The notes under the pieces are model-generated. The model was not told where the DNA came from. It made no database searches and saw only the letters and a list, made by a program, of their open reading frames with translations. From assembly GCF_964194155.1 (NCBI RefSeq), contig NC_135901.1, positions 19,282,001-19,346,000 of the forward strand: a DNA stretch of 64,000 nucleotides, written 5' to 3'. This stretch comes from Cetorhinus maximus. Its lineage: Eukaryota. Position numbers and translations under genes: made by a program. The first letter of the stretch is position 1. The number at the start of each line of letters is the position of its first letter. Positions 3,601 through 63,739 of this stretch are shown in pieces.

Positions 3601-4245
3601 TCAATCAGAGTAAACATGCAAGTCCCGTGTGTCCATAGTCACTTACACGAGGTCAGCCCGCTGGATGGAACCTCGGGCACCCTGAGCTTGATCTCCGGTG
3701 TCTCCAGTCCCAACTGTTCCTAACATCAGAATGCCTCACTTTTATACCCTGTCATGCTCTGGCCCCTGACTCTTTGTCTTCTCTGCTGGGTTTTGGTAGA
3801 AAATGAAGAAATGACAGCTGAAATTTCTCAAGTCTGTGATTTACAGGGACACATTCCCTGATTCCCATCAGTTACTTCATTTCAGTAATTTTCTCATTAA
3901 CACTAAACTACCTTGCCTACTATTAATTCTGTTATTTCTCATAGAATTATGATTATATATATAAACATTACACATTATAATTTAATCTATTTTATTCCTC
4001 ACTCTGGTTTAAGTTTTTAATGTGCTTAACAGACAAACTCTGTCCTTTCCCTGATCTGATTAGAGTTTTCAATGAGTCGATTCTGTGGAATGGAATGTCT
4101 TATCAGTGTTGCCATGGTGACCTGTCTGCAATGAAGAGCCTGTTTGAGTTTCTAACTCAGACTAAACTTCTCTATCCCATAATACATATTGTTTCAGGCA
4201 TTCCGAGTCATTCAGTCCAGCTGGTCCTCTCCTTGTCCCTTTAAA

Positions 4246-16934: not shown

Positions 16935-17100
16935 AAAATGAAATCAGAATGCTGGAAATACTCAGTTCTGAAGAAGAATCATATTGGATTGGAAATGTTA
17001 AATCTGTTTCTCTCTCTTCACAGAAGCTGCCAAACCTGCTGAGGATTTCCAGAACTTTCTGTTTTTATCTCAGATTTCCAGCATTCATCGTATTTTACTA
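16935..17100 (+). mobile_element. Short non-coding PLE-terminus derivative with hammerhead-like core
   Basis: A short inverted copy of the PLE tail is followed by CAGTT-CTGAAGA...GAAATGTT and the PLE 3' tail (CCTGCTGAG...GATTTCCAGCAT). Confidence 0.6.
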
Positions 17101-26231: not shown

Positions 26232-28450
26232 GTATTTTAGTTCCAATCAGCAGCAACAGAATTGTACTCGAACACAATCTGTAACCTCGTGCCCCGGGAT
26301 ATCCCCCACTCTACCATTACCAACAAGCCAGGGGATCAACCCTGGTTCAATGAAGAGTGCAGGAGGGCATGCCAGGAGCAGCACCAGGTATACCTTAAAA
26401 TGATGTGTCAGCCTGGTGAAGCTATAGCACAGGACTGCTTGCGTGCCAAACAGCATACGCAGCAAGTAATAGACAGGGCTAAACGATCCCACAACCAATG
26501 GATCAGATCTAAGCTCTGCAGTCCTGCCACATCCAATCATGAATGGTGGTGGACAATTAAACAACTCACTGGAGAAGGCTCCACAAACATCCCCATTCTC
26601 AATGATGGAGGAGCCCAGCACATCAGTGCAAAACATAAAGGCTGAAGCATTTGCTACAATCTTCAGCCAGAAGTGCAGAGTGGACAATCCATCTCAGCCT
26701 CCTCCGGAGGTCCCCAGCATCACAGATACCAGTCTTCAGCCAATTCGATTTACTCCACGTGATATCAATAAATGGCTGAAAGCACTGGATACTGCAAAGG
26801 CTATGGGCCCTGACAATATTCCGGCAATAGTCCTGAAGACTTGTGCTCCAGAACTTGCCGCGCCCCTAGCCAAGCTGTTCCAGTACAACTACAACACTGG
26901 CATCTACCCGGCTATGTGGAAAATAGCCCAGGTATGTCCTGTACACAAAAAGCAGGACAAATCCAACCCAGCCAATTACTGCCCCATAAGCCTACTCTCG
27001 ATCATCAGTAAAGTAATGGAAGGGGTCATCAACAGTACAGTCAAGTGGCAGTTGCTTAGCAATAAATAACCTGCTCACTGATGCCCAGTTTGGGTTCCGC
27101 CAGGGGCACTTAGTTCCTGACCTCATTACAGTCTTGGTTCAAACATGGACAAAAGAGCTGAACACCTGGGGTGAAGTGAGAGTGACTGCCCTTGACATCA
27201 AGGCAGCATTTGACAGAGTGTGGCATCAAGGAGGCCGTGCAAAACTGGAGTCAATGGGAATCGGGGGGGAAAACTCTCCACTGGTTGGAGTCATACCTAG
27301 CACAAAGGAAGATGGTAATGGTTCTCTGCCAATGCTGCCAGACCTGAGTTTTTCCAGGTATTTCTGTTTTTGTTTTGGATTTCCAGCATCCGCAGTTTTT
27401 TGTTTTTATCTCTATTATTATTAAGATGGTAATGGTTGTTGGAGGTCAGTCATCTCAGCTCCAGGACATCACTGCAGGAGTTCCTCAGGGTAGTGTCCTC
27501 GGCTCAATCATCTTCAGCTGCTTCACCTTCCTTCCAGCATAAGGTCAGAAGTGGTGATGTTCACTGATGATTACACGATGTTCAGCACCATTTGTGACTC
27601 CTCAGATACTGAAGCACTCCATGTCCAAAGTGCATCAAGACCTGGATAATATCCAGGCTTGGGTTGGCAAGTGGCAAGTAATGTTCGCACCACACAAGTG
27701 TCAGGCAATGACAATCTCCAACAAGAGAGAATCCAACCATTGCCCCTTGATGTTCAATTGCATTACCATCACTGAATCCCCCACTATCAACATCTTGGGG
27801 GTTACCATTGACCAGAAACTGAACTGGACCAGCCATATAAATACTGTGGCTACAAGAGCAGGTCAGAGGCTAGGAATAGTGTGACGGGTAACCCACCTTC
27901 AGACTCCCCAAAGCCTGTCCACCATCTACAAGGCACAAGTCAGGAGTGTGATGGAATACTTCCCACTTGCCTGGATGAGTGCAGCTCCTACAACACTCAA
28001 GAAACTTGATACCATCCAGGACAAAGCAGTCCGCTTGATTGGCACTACATCTACAAACATTCACTCCCTCCACCACCGACGCACTGTAGCAGCAGTGTGT
28101 ACCATCTACAAGATGCACTGCAGGAATTGACCACGGCTCCTTCAACAGCACCTTCCAAACCCATGACCACTATCATCTAGAAGGACAAAGGCAGCAGATA
28201 GATGGGAACACCACCAAGAAGTTCCGCTCCAAGGCACTCATCATCCTGACCTGGAAATATATCGCCATTCCTTCACTGTCGCTGGGTCAAAATCCTGGAA
28301 CCTCCCTCCAACCACCACTGTGGGTGTACCTACACCACATGGACTGCAGCAGTTCAAGAAGGCAGCTCACCACCACCTTCTCAAGGGCAGCTAGGGATGA
28401 GCAATAAATGCTGGCCCAGCCAGCGAAGCCCACATCCCATGAATGAATAA
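26232..28450 (+). mobile_element. CR1-group LINE, 5'-truncated, about 2.2 kb, nested in an older CR1 fragment
   Basis: KAMGPDNIP, ALDIKAAFDRVWH and GVPQGSVLG; 3' end CCCATGAATGAATAA; the empty site is visible in the paralog at about 49110-49150. Confidence 0.92.
27324..27422 (+). mobile_element. 99-bp PLE 3'-tail insertion with 15-bp TSD
   Basis: AAGATGGTAATGGTT at 27309-27323 and 27423-27437. Confidence 0.85.
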
Positions 28451-28800: not shown

Positions 28801-29218
28801 AAATGAGCTTCCAAAATCCATCCCTGTCAGTCCAGGATAGAAATTCACAACACTCTCACCTCTTCCTGACAGGGATGACCACGCATGCGCTCTGCTGCCC
28901 ATTAACCCTTGTTGTCGTTGGCAGTCCCTCGATTCGAGGATGACGGCTACTCAGAGTAATGAGTTTCTGTGGTAGGGGGTCTTCATCTGACTGAACATAC
29001 CTACAGATCATTGAATACATGGGGCAGAATGTGCCATGAGGTAGTTGAATCAGGAAAGCAGGATTTGCTTCCTTTACTTTCCTTCTCTGACCTTTCTCTG
29101 TCTCATCAATAATACAATTAAGACTCAAAGGTTAATGCAACTTGATGGACAAGTTGTCACCATTCTGAACAATGGGTAACAAGCTCCTGTCATTACAAAC
29201 ATCGCCCCCTATAAAGAT

Positions 29219-30845
29219 CTTCCTTCCACAGTTTCCAACCTGATAGTCACCCAACCTCGGACGGCCCACTTCTACCTCCTACCCAAAATCCACAAACAGG
29301 ACTGTCCCGGCAGACCGATCGTGTCAGCCTGTTCCTGCCCCATGGAACTCATTTCTCGCTATCTTAACGCCCTTCTCTCTCCCCTTGTCCAGATCCTTCC
29401 CACCTACATCCGTGATTCCTCTGACACCTTACGTCACATCAACAATTTCCAGTTCCCTGGCCCCAACCGCCTCCTCTTCACCATGGACATCCAATCCCTC
29501 TACACCTCCATCCCCCACCGGGATGATCTGAGGGCTCTCAGTTTCTTCCTCGAACAGAGGCCCGAACAATCCCCATCCACCACTACTCTCCTCCGTCTGG
29601 CTGAACTTGTTCTCACACTGAATAATTTCTCCTTTAACTCCTCTCACTTACTCCAAATAAAAAGTGTGACTATGGGTACCCACATGGGCCCCAGCTATGC
29701 CTGTCTCTTTATGGGGTATGTGGAACATTCCTTGTTCCAGTCCTACTCTGGCCCCCTCCCACAACTCTTTCTCTGGTACATCGATGATTACTTCGGTGCT
29801 GCTTTATGCTCTCGTCGGGACCTGGAAAAATTTATTAATTTTGCTTCCAATTTCCACCCCTCCATCATTTTCACATGGTCCATCTCTGACACTTCCCTTC
29901 CTTTTCTTGACCTCTCTGTCTCAATTTCTGGTGATAGACTGTCCACCAATATCCATTACAAACCTACCGACTCCCACAGCTACCTCGACTACAGCTCCTC
30001 ACACCCCGCTTCCTGTAAGGACTCCATCCCATTCTCTCAGTTCCTTCGCCTCCGTCGCATCTGTTCTGATGATGATACCTTCAAAAACAGTTCCTCTGAC
30101 ATGTCCTCCTTCTTCCTTAACCGAGGTTTTCCACCCACGGTAGTTGGCAGGGCCCTCAACCGTGTTCGGCGCATCTCCCGCGCATCCGCCCTCACGCCTT
30201 CTCCTCCCTCCCAGAAACATGATAGGGTCTCCCTTGTCCTCACTTATCACCCCACCAGTCTCTGCATTCAAAGGATCATCCTCCGCCATTTCCGCCAACT
30301 CCAGCATGATGCCACCACCAAACACATCTTCCCTTCACCTCCCCTGGCGGCATTCCGTAGGGATCGTTCCCTCCGTGACATCCTGGTCCACTCCTCCATC
30401 ACCCCCTACTCCTCAACCCCCACCTACGGCACCTCCCCATGCAAACGCAAAATATGCAACACCTGCCCCTTCACTTCCTCTCTCCTCACCGTCCAAGGGC
30501 CCAAACACTCCTTTCAAGTGAAGCAGCATTTCACTTGCATTTCCCCCAACTTCGTCTACTGCATTTGTTGCTCCCAATGCGGTTTCCTCTACATTGGAGA
30601 GACCAAACGCAGACTGGGTGACCGCTTTGCAGAACACTTTTGGTCTGTCCGCAAGCATTACCCAGACCTCCCTGTCGCTTGCCTTTTTAACACTCCACCC
30701 TGCTCTCTTGCCCACATGTCTGTCCTTGGCTTGCTGCGTTGTTCAGTGAAGCTCAACGCAAACTGAAGGAACAGCACCTCATCTTCCGACTAGGCACTTT
30801 ACAGCCTTCCGGACTGAATATTGAGTTCAACAACTTTAGATCTTA
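29219..30845 (+). pseudogene. PLE RT + GIY-YIG endonuclease ORF with a 1-bp frameshift near the C-terminus
   Basis: LPKIHK..GRPIVS, MDIQSLYT, MGTHMGPSYA, YIDD, C-x4-C-x2-C linker and VYCI...YIGET. Confidence 0.9.
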
Positions 30846-31190
30846 AACTCCATCCCCACCCCCTTTCCGTTTCTTCCCCCTCCCTTTTGTTTTGTACAAC
30901 AATTTATATAGATTTTTCTTTTCCCACCTATTTCCATTATTTTTAAATGTATTCTGCCCATCGGTTATTTCACCCCACCCCCACTTGAGCTACCTTGCTT
31001 GTCCTGCTCTCCACTCTTAATTAGCACATTCTTTTAGATAATATCACCACCTTCAACACCTCTTTGTTCTTTTGTCTGTGACATCTTTTGGTTATCTCCT
31101 CCTATCACTGCTTGCTTGTCCCAACAACACCTCCCCCCCCCCCCCCCCCCCGCAAAACCAGCTTATATTTCACTCCTTTCCCATTTGTAC

Positions 31191-31232
31191 TTGGTTCTGT
31201 TGAAGGGTCATGAGGACTCGAAACGTCAACTG
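31191..31232 (+). ncRNA. Minimal type I hammerhead-like motif of the PLE
   Basis: TGGTT-CTGTTGA-A-GGGTC/GACTC-GAAA-CGTC-AACTG. Stem III is the loopless palindrome ACGT. Core A6 is non-canonical. Confidence 0.55.
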
Positions 31233-31290
31233 TGCTCTCCTCCGCCGATGCTGCCAGACCTGCTGAGTTTTTCCAGGTATTTCTATTTTT

Positions 31291-31700
31291 GCCCCCTATA
31301 AAGATAGCGGCCATTAATTGGCGCCGATATCTAAGAGCTGTGGTCCCACTCGGCGCAAACGGGGGAACGGTCACGTCTTTTTCGGGTTTGTAACTTCCAT
31401 AACATGTTTACGAAGCTTCCCCGCCCGATCCATTACTCCCTCCCCTCGCTATCTCACCTTTACCTGTTGTGGAGCCAACAAGAAACTTCACCCAATCGTC
31501 ATTATCAGCATTGCGCATGCTTCAGTCACAGCCCTGCCCCGTCATTCATTCACCCCGATTACTTGGATAACCAGCAGCGCACGCTCGGTCTTCCAGTCCC
31601 GCCCCCTCTTCCTATTGGTCTTGAGCTGCGTCAATCACCCGGGCATTGTGACGGTTTCAAACGCTGAGAGCGGCCACAGACTCAGCCTGACTTGCTGATT
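31291..31700. promoter_or_regulatory. CpG-island promoter with an inverted copy of the CCAAT/GC module
   Basis: TGCGCATGC, CCCGCCCCC, ATTGG; AAGATAGCGGCC (YY1-like) at the PLE junction. Confidence 0.7.
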
Positions 31701-50060: not shown

Positions 50061-50276
50061 GCTTTAAACAGATGAAACCCTGTGGATGTGGAGCAAACAT
50101 TTCAACATTTGTTAGTGAACTGTGGGAACATGATGAAACAATGTACAAACAATTCAAGGGCTGATTTAAATAATTAACTGGGCAGAGAGGGAATGTCACC
50201 ATTAGAAAAAGGAGAGTCCCTGGTTTCAAGAAATTAACTGGCAGAAGAGTTAGAGCAGGTTAGGGAGAAGGTTAAA

Positions 50277-50322
50277 AACAAAAAGCTAAAAGCTACTGCG
50301 GATGCTGGAAATCCAAAGATTT
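50277..50322 (-). mobile_element. 46-bp PLE 3'-terminal micro-insertion with 14-bp TSD
   Basis: GGGAGAAGGTTAAA at 50263-50276 and 50323-50336; the insert matches 60574-60614. Confidence 0.85.
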
Positions 50323-50499
50323 GGGAGAAGGTTAAATCGGGTTCAAAGGGGTTAAATGATATATGTTTTCTAGGCTGGACAATCATTCAAATCTGAGACT
50401 CAGGTGAGGCTTTGGATTGGTGTTAGGTGAGATGATCTGGTGTATTACAATCAGACTCACAGACTCACTCTTTTTCAGAGCCATTCAGACTCGAACAGT

Positions 50500-52880
50500 T
50501 AAGACTATAAGATGTCGGAACAGAAGTAGGATTTTTGGCCCATTGAGTCTGCTTTACTATTCAATGAGAACATGGCTGCTCTGAAAATCCTCAACTCCAC
50601 TTCCCTGTCTTTTCCCCATAATCCTTGCTTCCCTTACTGATTAAAAATCTGTCTATCTCAACCTTGAATATACTTAATGACCCAGCCTCTACAGCCCTCT
50701 GCAGTAAAGAATTCCACAGATTGAATACCCTCTGAGAGAAGAAATTTCTCCTCATCTCCGTTTTAAATGGGCACCCCCTCACTCTGAGATTATGTCTTCT
50801 GGTCCTAGACTCTCTCACAAGGGAAAAAAAACCTTTCAGTATCTACCCTGTCCAGCCCCAGAAGAATCTTATATGTTTCAATAAGGTTGCCTCTCATTCT
50901 TCTAAACTCCAATGAGTACAGGCCCAACCTACTCAACCTCTCCTCATAAGAAAATCCCTCCATCCCCAAGATCAACCTCGTGAACCTTCCCTGGACTGCC
51001 TCCAATTCCAGTATATCTTTCCTTAGATAAGGGGTCCAGAATTGTTCACAGTATTCTGGGTGTGGTCTAACCAGTGCCTTGTATAGCTTTAGCAAGACTT
51101 CCCTATTTTTATACTCCATTCCCTTTGAAATAAAAGCCAACATTCCATTTGCCTTCCCTGTTACTGTTGAACTTGTATGTTAGCATTTTGGGATTCATGC
51201 ACAAGGACTCCAAAATCCCTCTGTGCTGCAGCCTTCTGCAGTCTTTCTCCATTTAAATAATATTCAGCTCCTCTATTCTTCCTGCCAATGTGCATAACCT
51301 CACATTTTCCCACATTATATTCCATATGCCAAGTTTTTGCTCACTCACTTAACCTGTCCATGTCCCTCTGTAGACTCTTTGTGTCATCCTCACCACTTGC
51401 CACCCCACCTAATTTTTGTGTCATCCACACGCTTGGTGATAGTACATTCACTTCCCTCATCTAAGTCATTAATATATATTGTAAATAATTGTGGCCCCAG
51501 CACTGATCCCTATGGCACTCCACTAGTTACATGTGGCCATCCTGAAAATGCCCCTGTATCCCAATTCTTTGTCTTCTATTAGTTAGCCAATTCTCTATCC
51601 ATGCTGATATACTTCCCCCAACACCTTGGGTTTTTATCTTATTAAGTGGCCTCATGTGCGGTACCTTATTGAATGCCTTTTGGAAATCCAAATATATTAC
51701 ATCTACTGGTTCCCCTTTATCTATTCTGCTTGTTACCCCTCAAAGAATTCAAATGAATTTGTTAGGCATGGGAAAGTTTTAAAAACCAACAAAAGATGAC
51801 CAAAAAAAAAATAAAGAGGGAGAAAATAAACTTTTAGGCATGACATCCCCTTCATGAATCCTTGCTGACTCTGCTTGATTAGATTGTGTATTTCTAAATG
51901 CTCTGCTATTACATCCCAATGACAGATGTTAAGCTAACTGGCCTATAGTTGCCTGTTTTTTGTCTCCCTCCCTTTTTGAATAAGGGTGTTACATTAGCTG
52001 TTCTCCAATCCTCTTTGACTTTTCCAGAATCAAAGGATTCTTGGAAGATTACTACCAGCGCATCCACTATCTCTGTAGCTACTTCCTTTAATATCCTAAG
52101 ATGCAACCCATCAGGTTCTTATTGGCCTTTAGCCCCATTAGTACTTTTTCTCGAGTGATAGTTATTGTATTTATTTCCTCCCCGCTTTTGCCCTTTGATT
52201 ATTTGGTATTTTTGGAATGCTATTAGTATCTTCTACCATGAAGACTGAAGCAAATATTTATTCAACTCCATTGCCATTTCCTGGTTCCCCATTATTATTT
52301 CCCCAGCCTCATTCTGTAAGTGGTCTATGTTCATTTTGTCCTCTCTCTTCCTTTTTATATATTTAAAGAAGCTCTTACTGTCCATTTTTATATTTCTTGC
52401 TAGTTTATCCTCAAAGTTTATTTTCTCCCTCTTTATTTTTTTTTGGTCATCTTTTGTTGGTTTTTAAAACTTTCCCAATCCTCTGGCTTACCATCAATCT
52501 TTGCCATATTTTATGTTTTTTCTTTCAATTTGATACTGTCCTTAACTTCCTTGATTAACCATGGTTGGTTTATCCCCTTCCTTGAATCGTTCTTCTTCAC
52601 TGGGATATATCTTTGTTGTGAGTCATGAAGTATTTTCTTAAATGTCTGCCATTGTTCAACAATCGTCTTTTCTGCTAAAGTGCTTCCCCAGTCCACTCCA
52701 GCCAACTATGCCCCCATTCCATTGTAATTACCCTTATTTGAGTTTAGCACAGTTGCTTCCAACCTAAGTTTCTCACTCTCAAACTGAATGCTAAATTCTA
52801 CCATATTATGGTCAGTTTCCTAGGGAATCCTTTATTCTGAAATCATTTATTCAACCTGCCTCATTACACATTACCAGATC
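50500..52880 (-). mobile_element. CR1 LINE ORF2, about 2.4 kb, degraded
   Basis: DWRTANVTPLFKKG..NYRPVSLTS, LYKALVRPHPEYC and FFSQRVFNLWNSL. Confidence 0.9.
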
Positions 52881-55041: not shown

Positions 55042-55499
55042 ATACCAATCTATGATTTGACAGCACGTTTCCAGCATTCACCCTTGTTCTTCTTGAATCT
55101 AAAGGAGCCTTCTGTTCCATTTCTAGGGGCTCTGAACCATGGAAGAGAGCAGCTGGGACACATTTTTTACACACCTCAGGACTCACCCACCTGGGGAGGT
55201 TATTGTCAGTGAAGGGAGATGAAAAAGACCAAAATGTCATTTGTCCCTCTCAGTGTGACCCTGAGGGACTGTGTCCAGGCTGAAGTTCTGTTCCTGCCGT
55301 ACGATCCTCCCCCAGGTTGTCCTTTCTGAGCTCCAACCAGGTGATGTTAAACACTCAGGTGGGAAAGACAAAAATCAACAACTATGTCTTTTAAACAAAG
55401 CTAGATTCAAATACATTTATCCAGAATATTAATAACACTACAATGCGGCTGGAATATGACATCAACAGAAACAAACCACAACTGCCAGGTTGAATATGG

Positions 55500-56459
55500 T
55501 TCAGCCTGGATGTGATTAACACCATCAATAACAGCAGAGTGCAATTCCTGCAGTCTCTTGTGACCTCGCTGGTGTCTCAGCAGATTGGATGACTGAGTGA
55601 ATCCCTTCCCACACTCAGAGCAGATGAATGGCCTTTCCCCAGTGTGAGTGGCTTCGTGCCTCAGCAGATCCTTTTTGCTTTTAAAGCTCTTCTCACAGTC
55701 AGAACATTGAAAAGGTCTCTGATCAGTGTGAACAAGCTGATGTTTACTAAGCTGTGATGACTGAGTGAATCCCTTCCCTCAAAAGGAGCAGATGAATGGC
55801 CTCTCCCCAGTGTGAACTCGCTGATGTACAATGAGATCAGATGATCGCCTGAACCCAGTTACACAGTGAGAGCACCTGAAAGGTCTCTCATCAGTGTGGA
55901 CACGTTGATGGAACATCAGTTCCCCAGAACTTTTATAGCACTTCTCGCAGTCTGCGCAATTAAAAGGTCTCTCATCAGTGTGAACTCGCTGGTGTTTCAG
56001 CAGGTTGGAAGATCCCCAAAATCTCTTCCCACAGTGAGAGCAGCTGAACGGTGTGGAACCAACGTGAATTCGCTGGTACTCCCTCAGTGTTGAAGGGTGT
56101 TTGAAGCTGTTTTCACAGTCACAACATTTAAACTTTCGCCGGTATGAACCAGCACGAGAGAGAAATCAGTGAATCCCTTCCCACACACCGAGCAGGTGAA
56201 TGGCCTCTCCACAGTGTGAATTCTCTGGTGTTCCAGTAGGGTGGATTACCGAGTAAATCCTTTCCCACTCATGGAGCAAGTGAATGGTCTCTCTCCAGTG
56301 TGACTGCACTGATGAATCTCCAGCTCATATGGGTAATTGAATCCCTTCCCACAGTCTGTACATTGACATGGTTTCTCATCGGTGTGACTCCGCTTGTGTC
56401 TCGACAGACCGGAGTGTGTGCGGTTTCTCTCCACTGTGAATGATGCTTTCTCCTTCCAT
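55500..56459 (-). pseudogene. C2H2 zinc-finger pseudogene A7
   Basis: About 10-11 finger units with several frameshifts and stops; AACATGG start at 56459. Confidence 0.85.
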
Positions 56460-58340: not shown

Positions 58341-60678
58341 ATCTTTTAACGGGTTTTCCATGTTACGTTTGAGACTAATTACATCGATCTCATTGGGAAA
58401 GTTAAAGAATTTGGTGTTGTACTACGATGTATGCAGGCAAATTAACTCGTGTGCTGAAATAACTATATTAGCATACTTGGCAGCTAAATGGGTGGATCAT
58501 TGACCTGTGTTATTATTGAGAGTTACTATCCCAGTTTTGGTTAAAGTTTGTTACTCACGTTGCATTTCATTCAGCCCGTTGTGCCCACGATGACCAACTA
58601 GTAGTCATCCAGCCTAATTCCAATTTTCAGATCTTGCACTGTAGCCTTGTAGGAAAGTGTACATCCAAATACTTTTTAAATGTTATGAGGGTTTCTGTGT
58701 CTACATTCCTTTCAGGCAGTGGGTTACAGACCTCCACCACCCTCTGGGTGAACAGTAAATCCCTTGAATCCCTAAACCTCCTACTACTCCTAAATCCACA
58801 CCCGTAGTTATGGGCCCCTCAACCATGGGGAATAGTGCCCTTTTAAGATAGATAGGTTTTTGATTGGTATGGGGATCAAAGGTTACGGGGAGAAGGCGGG
58901 AGAATGGGGTTGAGAAACTTATCAGCCATGATTGAATGGCGGAGCAGACTCGATGGGCCGAATGGCCTAATTTCTGCTCCTATGTCTTATGGTCTCTTAT
59001 GGTCTTATTCAATCTATCTAGACCCCTCATAATTTTATACATTTCATTTCAGTCTCCACTCAGCCTAGCCTCTGTTCCAAAGAAAACAATTCCAGCCTAT
59101 CCAATCTTTCCTCATAACTAACATTCTCCATCTTCTTAAATCTCTTTTGTACTCTCTCTGGTGCGATCACATCCTTCTTGTACTGTACACAGTACTCTAG
59201 CTGTGGCTAAACTAGTGTTTTATACAGTTCTAGCAGAATGCCCCTGTTCTTATATTCTGTGCCTTGGCTAATAGAGGTAATTATCCTTTATGCCTTCTTA
59301 ATCACCTTATCTACCTGTCCTGTTAACTTCAGGGATCTGTGGACATGCACTCCAAGATCTCTCTGTTCCTCTACAATTCTTGGTCTCCTGCCACTTATCA
59401 TGTGATCTTTTACCTTGTTTTCCCTACAATTTTCATCCTTATTGTCAACCACGGCAATTTTTTGTATCATACGAACATATGAAGTAGGAGCAGGAGTAGG
59501 CCACTTGCCCTCGAGCCTGTTCCACTATTTAATAAGATCATGGCTGATCTCATTGTAACCTCAGCTCCACATTCCTGCCTACCGCCAAAAACCTTTAACC
59601 CCCTTGTTATTCAAGAATCTATCTAGCTCATCTGCAAATTTCTTATTCATGACCCATATATTTAAGTCTGAATCAGTGATAGAAGCCGGGAATGAGCGAC
59701 CCAGTACTGAGCCAGTACTGTTATTTCCACAAACTGTGTCAAAATGAGGTTTCCACTGTTGCCCACTCCCCGGCTATTTACTGCTGATTTACCAGCTTTA
59801 ACTTCCCATACTTAGGAATTGTTTTTCCTGCACTAGAGATAATTTCTTTTCCATTTCTGAGCTTATATTGACCATCTAATTCTGCTCCATTTTTATTCCC
59901 CATAATTCATTCCGTACGTCCCGAAATGTTAACTCTGATTCTCTCTCCGCAGTTAATGCCTGACCTGCTGAGTGTTTTCAGCGTTTGCTCTTTTTACTTC
60001 AGATTTCTAGCAACTGCATTATTTTTTGCTTTTGTTTTATTGCAGACGTTGCTCATAGAATCAAGTCTAGAAACAGAAATGGTCCAGTTGAGAGCCAGTT
60101 TATATTGGAGTGCTGGCAGAGGTTGGTCCCTGGCCTCCTGTTTCATGTAGTCATAGAATGATCACAATACAGAAGGAGGCCATTTATCCCATCATGCCTG
60201 TGCTAGCTCTCTGCAACAGCAAACCAGCTAGTCTCACTCCCCTGTCCTTTTCTCATAGTCCAGCAGTTTTTCTTTCTCTCCAGGGTGTTGCTCAATTCCC
60301 TTTGCTTTGATGTATTAGTTTGAGCTGGAGTGGAGATGGAAGAGAAGCTGCTGGGTTTAACCCTGAGGAATTTGGAACCGAGTCGGGACCGACAATTTCA
60401 GATGTGACACTGAAATTGACAGACACTGTCCGTACACAGTAAAAGGATATTGTTTTAGGAACAAGTATTTCTGTAGATGCTTTTACTCTATTTCACATGC
60501 GCATATTTTAAAAATTTATACTTGGGATTTGGGCGTCATTAACAAGACCGGCAACATATATTTCCAATATAAAAACAAAAAGCTAAAAGCTACTGCGGAT
60601 GCTGGAAATCCAAAACAAAATAAAAACAGAATTACCTGGAAAAACTCAGCAAGTCTGGCAGCATCGGCGGAGAAGAAA

Positions 60679-60721
60679 TCAGTCAACGTTTCGAGCCCTC
60701 ATGGCCCTTCGGCAGAACTGA
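60679..60721 (-). ncRNA. Hammerhead-like motif, left arm
   Basis: Mirror of 63469-63511. Confidence 0.5.
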
Positions 60722-61068
60722 AGCATAGTTTCAACAAGGGAGAAATATAAATTGGTTTAAGGTGGGTGGGGGGGAAGAGACACATTGAGGGTGTGGTGTG
60801 AGCAGATAATCAAAAGATGTCAGAGACAAAAGGGTCAAAGAGGTGTTGAAGGTGGTGGTCTTTGTCTGAGAAAAGTGCTAATTAAGAATGGAAGACAGGA
60901 TATTCAAAGTACAGCTCTAGTGGGGGTGGGGTGGAAAGACTAAAGGTTTTAGTTTTAGATTTAAAAATAATGGAAATAGGTGGGGAAAGAAGAATCTATA
61001 TAAATTATTGAAAAAAAAGGCGGGTGGGGGGGGAAAAGAAACGGGGTGGGGATGGGGGGAGGGGGAGT

Positions 61069-62232
61069 TTAAGATCTAAAGTTGTTGAATTCAATATTCA
61101 GCCCAGAAGGCTGTAAAGTGCCTAGTCGGAAGATGAGGTGCTGTTCCTCCAGTTTGCGTTGGGCTTCACTGGAACAATGCAGCAAGCCAAGGACAGACAT
61201 GTGGGCAAGAGAACAGGGTGGAGTGTTAAAATGGCAAGCGACAGGGAGGTTTGGGTCTTTCTTGCGGACAGACCGCAGGTGTTCCGCAAAACGGTCGCCC
61301 AGTTTGCGTTTGGTCTCTCCAATGTAGAGGAGACCGCATTGGGAGCAACGAATGCAGTAGACTAAGTTAGGGGAAATGCAAGTGAAATGCTGCTTCACTT
61401 GAAAGGAGTGTTTGGGCCCTTGGACGGTGAGGAGAGAGGAAGTGAAGGGGCAGGTGTTGCATCTTCTGCGTGGGCATGGGGAGGTGCCATAAGTGGGGGT
61501 TGAGGAGTAGGGGGTGATGGAGGAGTGGACCAGGGTGTCCCGGAGGGAACGATCCCTACGGAATGCCGTCAAGGGGGGTGAAGGGAAGATGTGTTTGGTG
61601 GTGGCATCATGCTGGAGTTGGCGGAAATGGCGGAGGATGATCCTTTGAATGCGGAGGCTGGTGGGGTGATAAGTGAGGACAAGGGGGACCCTATCATGTT
61701 TCTGGGAAGGAGGAGAAGGCGCGAGGGAGGATGCGCGGGATATGGGCCGGACACGGTTGAGGGCCCTGTCAACGACCGTGGATGGAAAACCTCGGTTAAG
61801 GAAGAAGGAGGACATGTCAGAGGAGCTGTTTTTGAAGGTAGCGTCATCAGAACAGATGCGACGGAGGCGAAGGAACTGAGAGAATGGGATGGAGTCTTTA
61901 CAGGAAGCGGGGTGTGAGGAGCTGTAGTCGAGGTAGCTGTGGGAGTCGGTAGGCTTGTAATGGATATTGGTGGACAGTCTATCATCAGAAATTGAGACAG
62001 AGAGGTCAAGGAAGGGAAGAGAAGTGTCAGAGATGGACCATGTGAAGATGATGGAGGGGTGGAGATTGGAAGCAAAATTAATAAATTTTTCCAGGTCCCG
62101 ACGAGAGCATGAAGCAGCACCGAAGTAATCATCGATGTACCGGAGAAAGAGTTGTGGGAGGGGGCCGGAGTAGGACTGGAACAAGGAATGTTCCACATAC
62201 CCCATAAAGAGACAGGCATAGCTGGGGCCCAT
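61069..62232 (-). CDS. 5'-truncated PLE ORF (RT C-terminal half + GIY-YIG), uninterrupted
   Basis: FLRYIDD, CPRRRCNTC, VYCIRC..YIGETKR and GLN. Confidence 0.9.
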   Translation of the reverse strand: MGPSYACLFMGYVEHSLFQSYSGPLPQLFLRYIDDYFGAASCSRRDLEKFINFASNLHPSIIFTWSISDTSLPFLDLSVSISDDRLSTNIHYKPTDSHSYLDYSSSHPASCKDSIPFSQFLRLRRICSDDATFKNSSSDMSSFFLNRGFPSTVVDRALNRVRPISRASSLAPSPPSQKHDRVPLVLTYHPTSLRIQRIILRHFRQLQHDATTKHIFPSPPLTAFRRDRSLRDTLVHSSITPYSSTPTYGTSPCPRRRCNTCPFTSSLLTVQGPKHSFQVKQHFTCISPNLVYCIRCSQCGLLYIGETKRKLGDRFAEHLRSVRKKDPNLPVACHFNTPPCSLAHMSVLGLLHCSSEAQRKLEEQHLIFRLGTLQPSGLNIEFNNFRS

Positions 62233-62242
62233 GCGGCTATGC

Positions 62243-63121
62243 GACTCCCACAGCTACCTCGACTACAGCTCCTCACACCCCGCTTCCTGTAAAGACTCCA
62301 TCCCATTCTCTCAGTTCCTTCGCCTCCGTCGCATCTGTTCTGATGACGCTACCTTCAAAAACAGCTCCTCTGACATGTCCTCCTTCTTCCTGAACCGAGG
62401 TTTTCCATCCACGGTCGTTGACAGGGCCCTCAACCGTGTCCGGCCCATATCCCGCGCATCCTCCCTCGCGCCTTCTCCTCCTTCCCAGAAACATGATAGG
62501 GTCCCCCTTGTCCTCACTTATCACCCCACCAGCCTCCGCATTCAAAGGATCATCCTCCGCCATTTCCGCCAACTCCAGCATGATGCCACCACCAAACACA
62601 TCTTCCCTTCACCCCCCTTGACGGCATTCCGTAGGGATCGTTCCCTCCGGGACACCCTGGTCCACTCCTCCATCACCCCCTACTCCTCAACCCCCACTTA
62701 TGGCACCTCCCCATGCCCACGCAGAAGATGCAACACCTGCCCCTTCACTTCCTCTCTCCTCACCGTCCAAGGGCCCAAACACTCCTTTCAAGTGAAGCAG
62801 CATTTCACTTGCATTTCCCCTAACTTAGTCTACTGCATTCGTTGCTCCCAATGCGGTCTCCTCTACATTGGAGAGACCAAACGCAAACTGGGCGACCGTT
62901 TTGCGGAACACCTGCGGTCTGTCCGCAAGAAAGACCCAAACCTCCCTGTCGCTTGCCATTTTAACACTCCACCCTGTTCTCTTGCCCACATGTCTGTCCT
63001 TGGCTTGCTGCATTGTTCCAGTGAAGCCCAACGCAAACTGGAGGAACAGCACCTCATCTTCCGACTAGGCACTTTACAGCCTTCTGGGCTGAATATTGAA
63101 TTCAACAACTTTAGATCTTAA
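62243..63121 (+). CDS. Inverted duplicate of the PLE ORF C-terminus (thumb + GIY-YIG)
   Basis: Translation identical to the corresponding part of 61069..62232. Confidence 0.88.
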   Translation, partial: DSHSYLDYSSSHPASCKDSIPFSQFLRLRRICSDDATFKNSSSDMSSFFLNRGFPSTVVDRALNRVRPISRASSLAPSPPSQKHDRVPLVLTYHPTSLRIQRIILRHFRQLQHDATTKHIFPSPPLTAFRRDRSLRDTLVHSSITPYSSTPTYGTSPCPRRRCNTCPFTSSLLTVQGPKHSFQVKQHFTCISPNLVYCIRCSQCGLLYIGETKRKLGDRFAEHLRSVRKKDPNLPVACHFNTPPCSLAHMSVLGLLHCSSEAQRKLEEQHLIFRLGTLQPSGLNIEFNNFRS

Positions 63122-63468
63122 ACTCCCCCTCCCCCCATCCCCACCCCGTTTCTTTTCCCCCCCCACCCGCCTTTTTTTTCAATAATTTATATAGATTCTT
63201 CTTTCCCCACCTATTTCCATTATTTTTAAATCTAAAACTAAAACCTTTAGTCTTTCCACCCCACCCCCACTAGAGCTGTACTTTGAATATCCTGTCTTCC
63301 ATTCTTAATTAGCACTTTTCTCAGACAAAGACCACCACCTTCAACACCTCTTTGACCCTTTTGTCTCTGACATCTTTTGATTATCTGCTCACACCACACC
63401 CTCAATGTGTCTCTTCCCCCCCACCCACCTTAAACCAATTTATATTTCTCCCTTGTTGAAACTATGCT

Positions 63469-63511
63469 TCAGTTCTGCCGAAGGGCCATGAGGGCTCGAA
63501 ACGTTGACTGA
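63469..63511 (+). ncRNA. Hammerhead-like motif, right arm
   Basis: TCAGTT-CTGCCGA-A-GGGCC/GGCTC-GAAA-CGTT-GACTGA; core A6 is replaced by C. Confidence 0.5.
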
Positions 63512-63739
63512 TTTCTTCTCCGCCGATGCTGCCAGACTTGCTGAGTTTTTCCAGGTAATTCTGTTTTTATTTTGTTTTATATATTTCCAATACCTAGTTG
63601 TCTTTAGAGAAGATGATGCTTGACCTTCTTGAACCACTGCAGTCCATGTGGTGAAGGTGCTCCCACAATGCTGTTAGGTCAGAAGTTACAGGTTATTCAC
63701 CCAGTGATGATGAAGGAACAGTGATAAATGTCCAAGTCA

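Follow-up and report, generated by a model that had tools for sequence, protein, structure and literature searches.

How does a retroelement come to lie head to head with an inverted copy of itself inside a single target-site duplication (TSD): does the first complementary DNA (cDNA) fold back and copy itself, or are two cDNAs primed, one from each end of the target cut, and then joined? The question is raised by an insertion at 60556–63592 of a 64-kb stretch of the basking shark (Cetorhinus maximus) genome (assembly GCF_964194155.1, contig NC_135901.1, 19,282,001–19,346,000; hereafter the window), which its coding sequence assigns to the endonuclease-bearing (EN+) Penelope-like retroelements (PLEs) and in which a first-pass annotation had seen a second arm copied by self-priming from the first. 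Here we report that, among sister copies, the two arms of such doubles almost always end at two different fixed 3′ start sites and that either arm may be the longer, and we consider it likely that each arm is a separate cDNA primed from its own end of a staggered cut, the two being joined through a small hairpin. Coordinates are positions in the window unless prefixed "ref", which denotes element reference coordinates; L-numbers are sister loci. The papers cited are drawn on through excerpts of their text, and statements about them extend to those excerpts.

Results

The insertion contains two inverted-repeat arms, 60612–61948 and 62242–63578, each 1337 bp long and identical at 1336 of 1337 positions, with a single mismatch (61798/62392). 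The left, longer arm is a 5′-truncated element on the minus strand (60570–62236) that comprises part of the reverse transcriptase (RT), the thumb, a CX4CxxC linker, a GIY-YIG endonuclease domain, the 3′ pseudo-long terminal repeat (pLTR; 60570–61106, minus strand, its 5′ limit approximate and its sequence shared with the upstream pLTR of the full-length copy L034) and a terminal 42-nt tail (60570–60611, minus strand). By arm comparison, both this tail, which occupies the stretch from the outer to the inner 3′ start site described below, and a spacer of native element sequence at 61949–62236 (minus strand) belong to the long arm only. The right, shorter arm (62242–63578, plus strand) is an inverted 5′-truncated copy that lacks the tail and ends at the inner start site, in a T-tract. 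Comparison of the flanks gives a 14-bp TSD, the longest word common to both, at 60556–60569 and 63579–63592. The first-pass annotation was thus correct in describing equal arms with one mismatch, 42 nt missing from the right arm, and a single insertion event with one TSD flanking the whole structure. The lone mismatch between the arms, together with the perfect TSD, indicates that the insertion is recent. A short-read contig matches 63557–63636 without difference, its element side being only 22 nt and below our 31-letter bridging rule; among the matches listed, from four runs of one sample, no contig piece spans the central junction. The insertion is real and clean, though ordinary, its layout being one already known.

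Sister copies were sampled through exact matches to a 26-nt pLTR motif, which also served to gauge copy number in the 4.0-Gb genome. The first 100 matches form 65 position-ordered clusters on one contig, of which 60 were retrieved and the last five left out (the C1 sample). Because a second set of 39 loci, obtained by similarity search with the window query, is biased by the query's junction words, the main counts are taken from the C1 sample. The 93 3′ ends in that sample fall into two groups with none between them, 53 at the T-tract (ref 3927–3949) and 40 at an outer position (ref 3972–3985) some 35–45 nt beyond it. Single copies use both: four adjoin their TSD at the inner site and are tail-less (L089, L093, L099, and L111), and three adjoin it at the outer site and are tailed (L036, L046, and L086). 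The window itself holds one of each kind, a tail-less copy of 2.1 kb at 29215–31291 (29204–31305 overall) with a 15-bp TSD, 90% identical to the reference, and a tailed copy at 27322–27407 (27309–27437 overall) consisting of about 90 bp plus a short unexplained stretch, again with a 15-bp TSD. Since single copies end there against a TSD, the tail-less end is a start site in its own right.

The two ends of one double almost always differ in this respect. Of 37 head-to-head rows in the C1 sample, 34 pair a tailed with a tail-less end, as do all 31 head-to-head rows with a TSD of at least 11 bp (L129 being classed by its outer ends); a TSD of at least that length was found in 30 of the 33 C1 rows tested.

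If the second arm were copied from the first, it should always be contained in it, and this holds for the window copy but not across the family. Among 31 simple C1 doubles, the tail-less arm is the longer by more than 10 nt in 11 and the tailed arm in 9, the arms lying within 10 nt of each other in the other 11; overall, 17 of 41 have their tail on the shorter arm. This count left out 8 of 56 rows, namely sub-rows of L034, L063, and L129, the segmental duplicates L047 and L055, and L084, L096, and L124, which are genuine exceptions and were counted as such in the tally of 37. In doubles with a longer tail-less arm, each arm contains sequence that is absent from the other, so that neither is a plain copy of its partner. 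The arms may share very little: in the C1 sample, the common length is about 31 bp for L079 and 49 bp for L095, and in the search set it is 91 bp for L048 and zero for L052. When arms were compared with sibling copies in 19 doubles, a weak test of origin from one RNA, 12 had arms closer to each other (one of them by a narrow margin), 2 were ties, and in 5 the arms were the more distant.

At the centre of the window insertion, the junction hairpin (62216–62242, plus strand) contains the 7-bp stem reported earlier, in which 62216–62222 pair with 62236–62242 (DNA minimum free energy −7.7 kcal/mol for 62210–62243). The element had been thought to be truncated at about 62233; its native match instead runs to 62236. 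The closest copies spanning that position (0.35–0.78% divergent) proceed with different sequence beyond it, 6062 of the 6529 genomic copies of the 16-mer ending there go on into one of two native alleles, and among the matches listed (100 copies of the 16-mer) all carry the allele that departs from the window at 62237. Because these relatives leave the window sequence after 62236, 62237–62241 (plus strand) is added sequence; with it, the junction has a single match in the genome. All five added bases are an exact inverted copy of 62217–62221, as snap-back synthesis would leave them, and a random 5-mer would find such a template within 20, 40, or 100 nt with a chance of 0.5%, 1.0%, or 1.8%, respectively (terminal base paired). 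The idea that a cDNA end snapped back and gained a few bases is therefore supported. The native primer stem is weak, with only three pairs, 62222–62224 with 62234–62236, one of them G-T. Past the insert, the sequence resumes at the equivalent of 61948, where a single base is shared and three bases just upstream are alike.

Two further ideas about this junction were discarded. A truncation hotspot at the hairpin, to which nine loci ending at ref 2301–2307 had pointed, proved to be a search artefact in which rare junction words of the query drew such copies; nearly all copies of the 16-mer run through natively (6062/6529), and the window junction occurs once, and a fold of the type seen in L031 twice, in the genome. 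The view that most of the 7-bp stem is native rested on L034 as the reference, which carries a minority allele, and was overturned by the nearest relatives and by the 16-mer alleles.

The first-pass annotation had expected micro-hairpins at the junctions of other inverted copies, and snap-back-type inserts do occur on the tail-less long arms of L125 and L079, where these are joined to tailed short arms. Most sister junctions, scored by eye, show 1–4-nt overlaps or short inserts rather than a templated hairpin. A snap-back insert is also found in a single copy, L032, and the window contains an insertion of tail alone (50263–50336, 14-bp TSD), whose tail piece halts at the inner start site and is followed by five bases that are an inverted copy of the insertion's own end and then directly by the TSD, with no second arm. 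On this evidence, snap-back serves as a joining step and does not imply that any arm was copied from itself.

Structures of this kind are abundant. The pLTR motif has 44,694 exact matches in the genome, and neighbours within 4.5 kb among the first 100 matches are head to head (−/+) in 28 cases, +/− in 2, −/− in 3, and +/+ in 2; extrapolating from 28 pairs per 100 matches gives about 12,000 head-to-head doubles. The window structure has the commonest layout known for PLEs, and both the inverted copy with a one-sided tail and TSD and the self-priming idea are already published. Arkhipova et al. (2013; PMC3846280) call an inverted pLTR with a one-sided tail and TSD typical and propose, from such palindromes, self-priming on an antisense template, and Craig et al. 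(2021; PMC8557442) draw this scheme for every EN+ clade, ascribing the tail to endonuclease resolution of an intermediate. In the literature searched, most subscription journals being beyond the reach of the search, we found no statement of two-ended priming for PLE doubles.

The assignment of the element agrees with the earlier identification as Penelope-like. In the window, the minus-strand frame codes for the C-terminal part of RT, the linker and GIY-YIG, the core of the last (61258–61365, minus strand) matching Pfam PF01541 at E = 1.6e-4 and 22.4 bits, slightly below the 22.6 cut-off. The order of RT followed by C-terminal GIY-YIG within one open reading frame, as in EN+ PLEs, is seen whole in L129, a sister copy 0.35% from the window element with an open 924-aa frame (RVT_1, E = 2e-6; GIY-YIG, E = 4.5e-4, both slightly below Pfam cut-offs). 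Read from the window translation, LVYCIRCSQCGLLYIG is followed by two conserved-looking His, a feature defined for EN+ PLEs in PMC8557442. A CPRRRCNTC linker lies upstream of GIY-YIG, and a CX2-5CxxC linker between RT and endonuclease marks the Neptune/Nematis type, being absent from Penelope/Poseidon in the excerpted account (PMC8557442). L034 carries the same ~550 nt at both ends and L129 is a partial tandem, the pseudo-LTR organisation expected of EN+ PLEs, and the window insertion has their inverted truncated copy, one-sided tail and TSD. By these features, the element is an EN+ PLE with a Neptune/Nematis-type linker. L129 (449–6925) is itself a young double with a 15-bp TSD, and a Tyr-to-Phe variant present in both of its arms suggests one source for both.

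A hammerhead-like motif in the pLTR at 63469–63511 (plus strand; mirror copy at about 60679–60721), read from the sequence, is a candidate only: Rfam found no hammerhead in it and the fold of 63469–63511 has z = 0.05. Its core also deviates from the hammerhead consensus. Ten of the 31 simple C1 doubles have an arm end at ref 3834–3841, the start of hammerhead-like stem I and a small self-complementary motif; these ends could reflect an RNA 5′ end or a strong stop. In L092 (4645–4809), a short inverted arm meets the TSD at ref 3870, at neither of the usual starts; this position adjoins the hammerhead cut expected from the consensus.

Elsewhere in the window, a C2H2 zinc-finger array with an 84-bp period (55450–56450, minus strand) is spread across two frames that contain stops and has the look of a decayed zinc-finger gene. 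A 70-bp inverted repeat at 51769–51838 and 52409–52477, 97% identical with its halves about 570 bp apart, does not derive from the PLE family reference. Older hammerhead-bearing pLTR ends of related PLE families, 73–83% identical to the reference, lie at 16962, 25446, 31905, 35071, 48327, 52890, 57342, and 59922.

Discussion

That tailed ends are paired with tail-less ones, and that either arm can be the longer, points to priming from both target ends, and this is probably how the window insertion arose. The endonuclease would have cut both strands 14 bp apart, as the TSD implies; the left 3′ hydroxyl would start reverse transcription at the outer site, yielding the tailed arm, and the right at the inner site, 42 nt further in and probably on the same RNA, yielding the tail-less arm, with both cDNAs stopping early. 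The left cDNA end would fold on the weak native hairpin and gain five templated bases (the bases are present in the sequence; their place in the order of events we infer), then pair with the partner cDNA at the equivalent of 61948, after which each cDNA would template the other's second strand. The snap-back would thus be a joining step of the synthesis-dependent microhomology type rather than the source of the second arm, and the jump of about 290 nt postulated by the first-pass annotation would land on the partner cDNA. Purified Poseidon protein is known to cleave and extend both target strands, with two internal start sites, one on either side of the tail, and a dimer is predicted for it (PMC11167929).

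Several observations weigh against priming from both ends. The window copy has its tail on the longer arm, and its own sequence therefore fits self-copying as well; a jump onto the same cDNA and a jump onto an identical partner would give the same letters, and the copy taken alone is compatible with either. The 5′ ends of the two arms lie within 10 nt of each other in 11 of the 31 simple doubles, as against a permutation mean of 2.9 (none of 20,000 permutations reached 11), and such coinciding ends need either fold-back or a shared RNA end and fit both. Three C1 rows are unmixed (L084, which is tail-less at both ends, L096, and L124), none with a TSD, and L124 (499–1164), a symmetric structure with no tail at either end and one internal deletion joint common to its two arms, is a candidate for true self-copying. 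Recombination between arms, long arms especially, could flip the spacer from one to the other, although it would have to cope with several cases of a longer tail-less arm that share only 31–91 bp, and with L052, which shares none. In the Poseidon assay, as excerpted, the start site did not differ between strands (PMC11167929), and those in vitro data concern the Poseidon clade, whereas the window element has a Neptune/Nematis-type linker.

We tentatively extend two-ended priming to a specific arrangement, for which the case is somewhat short of even: a PLE dimer on one RNA may allot one of its two fixed RT start sites to each end of a staggered cut, so that two reverse transcriptases, one leading and one trailing, copy that RNA and their products are joined head to head. 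If true, this would account for the one-sided tail, the strictness of the tailed/tail-less rule and the coinciding 5′ ends, as well as for tail-only insertions that halt exactly at the inner start (50263–50336; L052), and it would provide a route of integration without a conventional second-strand step.

Among the alternatives, the one that survives best, though we think it unlikely, is that both ends were primed but the right cDNA stayed short, and the left folded back, copied most of the 1337 bp from itself and was captured by annealing. This would explain the excess of near-symmetric junctions, clean small-loop folds such as L031, the near-perfect identity of the arms (1336/1337) and the fixed ends adjoining the TSD; in the window copy, it cannot be told apart from the reading we favour. 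It is, however, superfluous where the arms do not overlap (L052) or the tailed arm is a short stub, and a centre with no loop, such as L061, would be sterically easier between two molecules.

We regard as improbable, at this locus, the reading of the first-pass annotation, in which only the left end was primed and the cDNA, having snapped back and jumped 290 nt, served as its own template, the resulting copy being cut or halted at the T-tract and then connected with the opposite target end. It has precedent in the self-priming scheme of PMC3846280 and in the endonuclease resolution to which PMC8557442 ascribes the tail. The snap-back itself is real, and in the window copy the tailed arm is indeed the longer. 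Self-priming, however, predicts that the tail always lies on the longer arm, and it lies on the shorter in 11 of the 20 asymmetric C1 doubles; the T-tract end to which the right arm runs is a start used by TSD-flanked single copies; and snap-backs occur without a second arm. As a rule for the family, it is already contradicted, unless spacer flipping is frequent even with arms of 30–90 bp.

Palindromes are prone to fold-back artefacts of assembly or library preparation, and the central junction is not among the contig pieces listed. Such an origin is nevertheless highly improbable given a perfect TSD in flanking sequence that is unique on either side, the mismatch between the arms, the templated 5-nt insert, a right junction present in a short-read contig, and dozens of sister structures of 150–300 bp that obey the same rule. 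Least probable of all are two insertions in succession, the later one landing in or next to the earlier. Although copies of the family are very numerous and PLEs are able to cleave their own pLTR (PMC11167929), a single TSD surrounds the whole and none lies at the junction, the arms differ at 1 of 1096 compared sites as against 0.50% from the nearest other copy, and neighbouring motifs are −/+ in 28 pairs as against 2, 3, and 2 in the other orientations.

The window copy is valuable for what it says about an unsolved step in PLE integration, its interest lying in the family-wide rule rather than in the single copy, and two-ended priming is testable in the existing in vitro Poseidon system.

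Among known systems, LINE-1 twin priming shares features with what we propose: both target ends prime cDNA, and a head-to-head inversion results inside one TSD. LINE-1 arms share no overlap, and the internal site at which the second primer lands varies. In the basking shark family, by contrast, each primer would start at a fixed site, the two lying 42 nt from one another, and the arms therefore duplicate each other. In layout, the nearest relatives of the window unit are Pen2a/Pen2 of Adineta vaga, which likewise have an inverted 5′-truncated copy adjoining the 5′ end, one TSD, junction palindromes and a 30–40-bp tail on one end only; the shark tail is 42 nt and its TSDs are 13–15 bp, those of A. 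vaga 8–10 bp (PMC3846280). In the excerpted text of that paper and of PMC8557442, the layout is explained by self-priming or endonuclease resolution, not by priming from both ends. The Anolis Poseidon element PAc in vitro (Frangieh et al. 2024; PMC11167929) resembles our proposal in its two tail-bracketing starts and extension of both strands, needs no homology and is a predicted dimer, although it belongs to another clade; there the start is described as alike on the two strands, and the excerpts do not deal with inverted doubles, whereas in the window family the start nearly always differs between the two ends of an insertion. Finally, the window junction resembles the synthesis-dependent form of microhomology-mediated end joining (PMC5728401) and the snap-back 5′ junctions of R2/PRINT (PMC11371274), in which a hairpin close by lets a 3′ end prime a limited amount of synthesis before that end is joined at another place; the partner in those systems is target DNA or a broken chromosome end, and in the window insertion it is probably a second cDNA.

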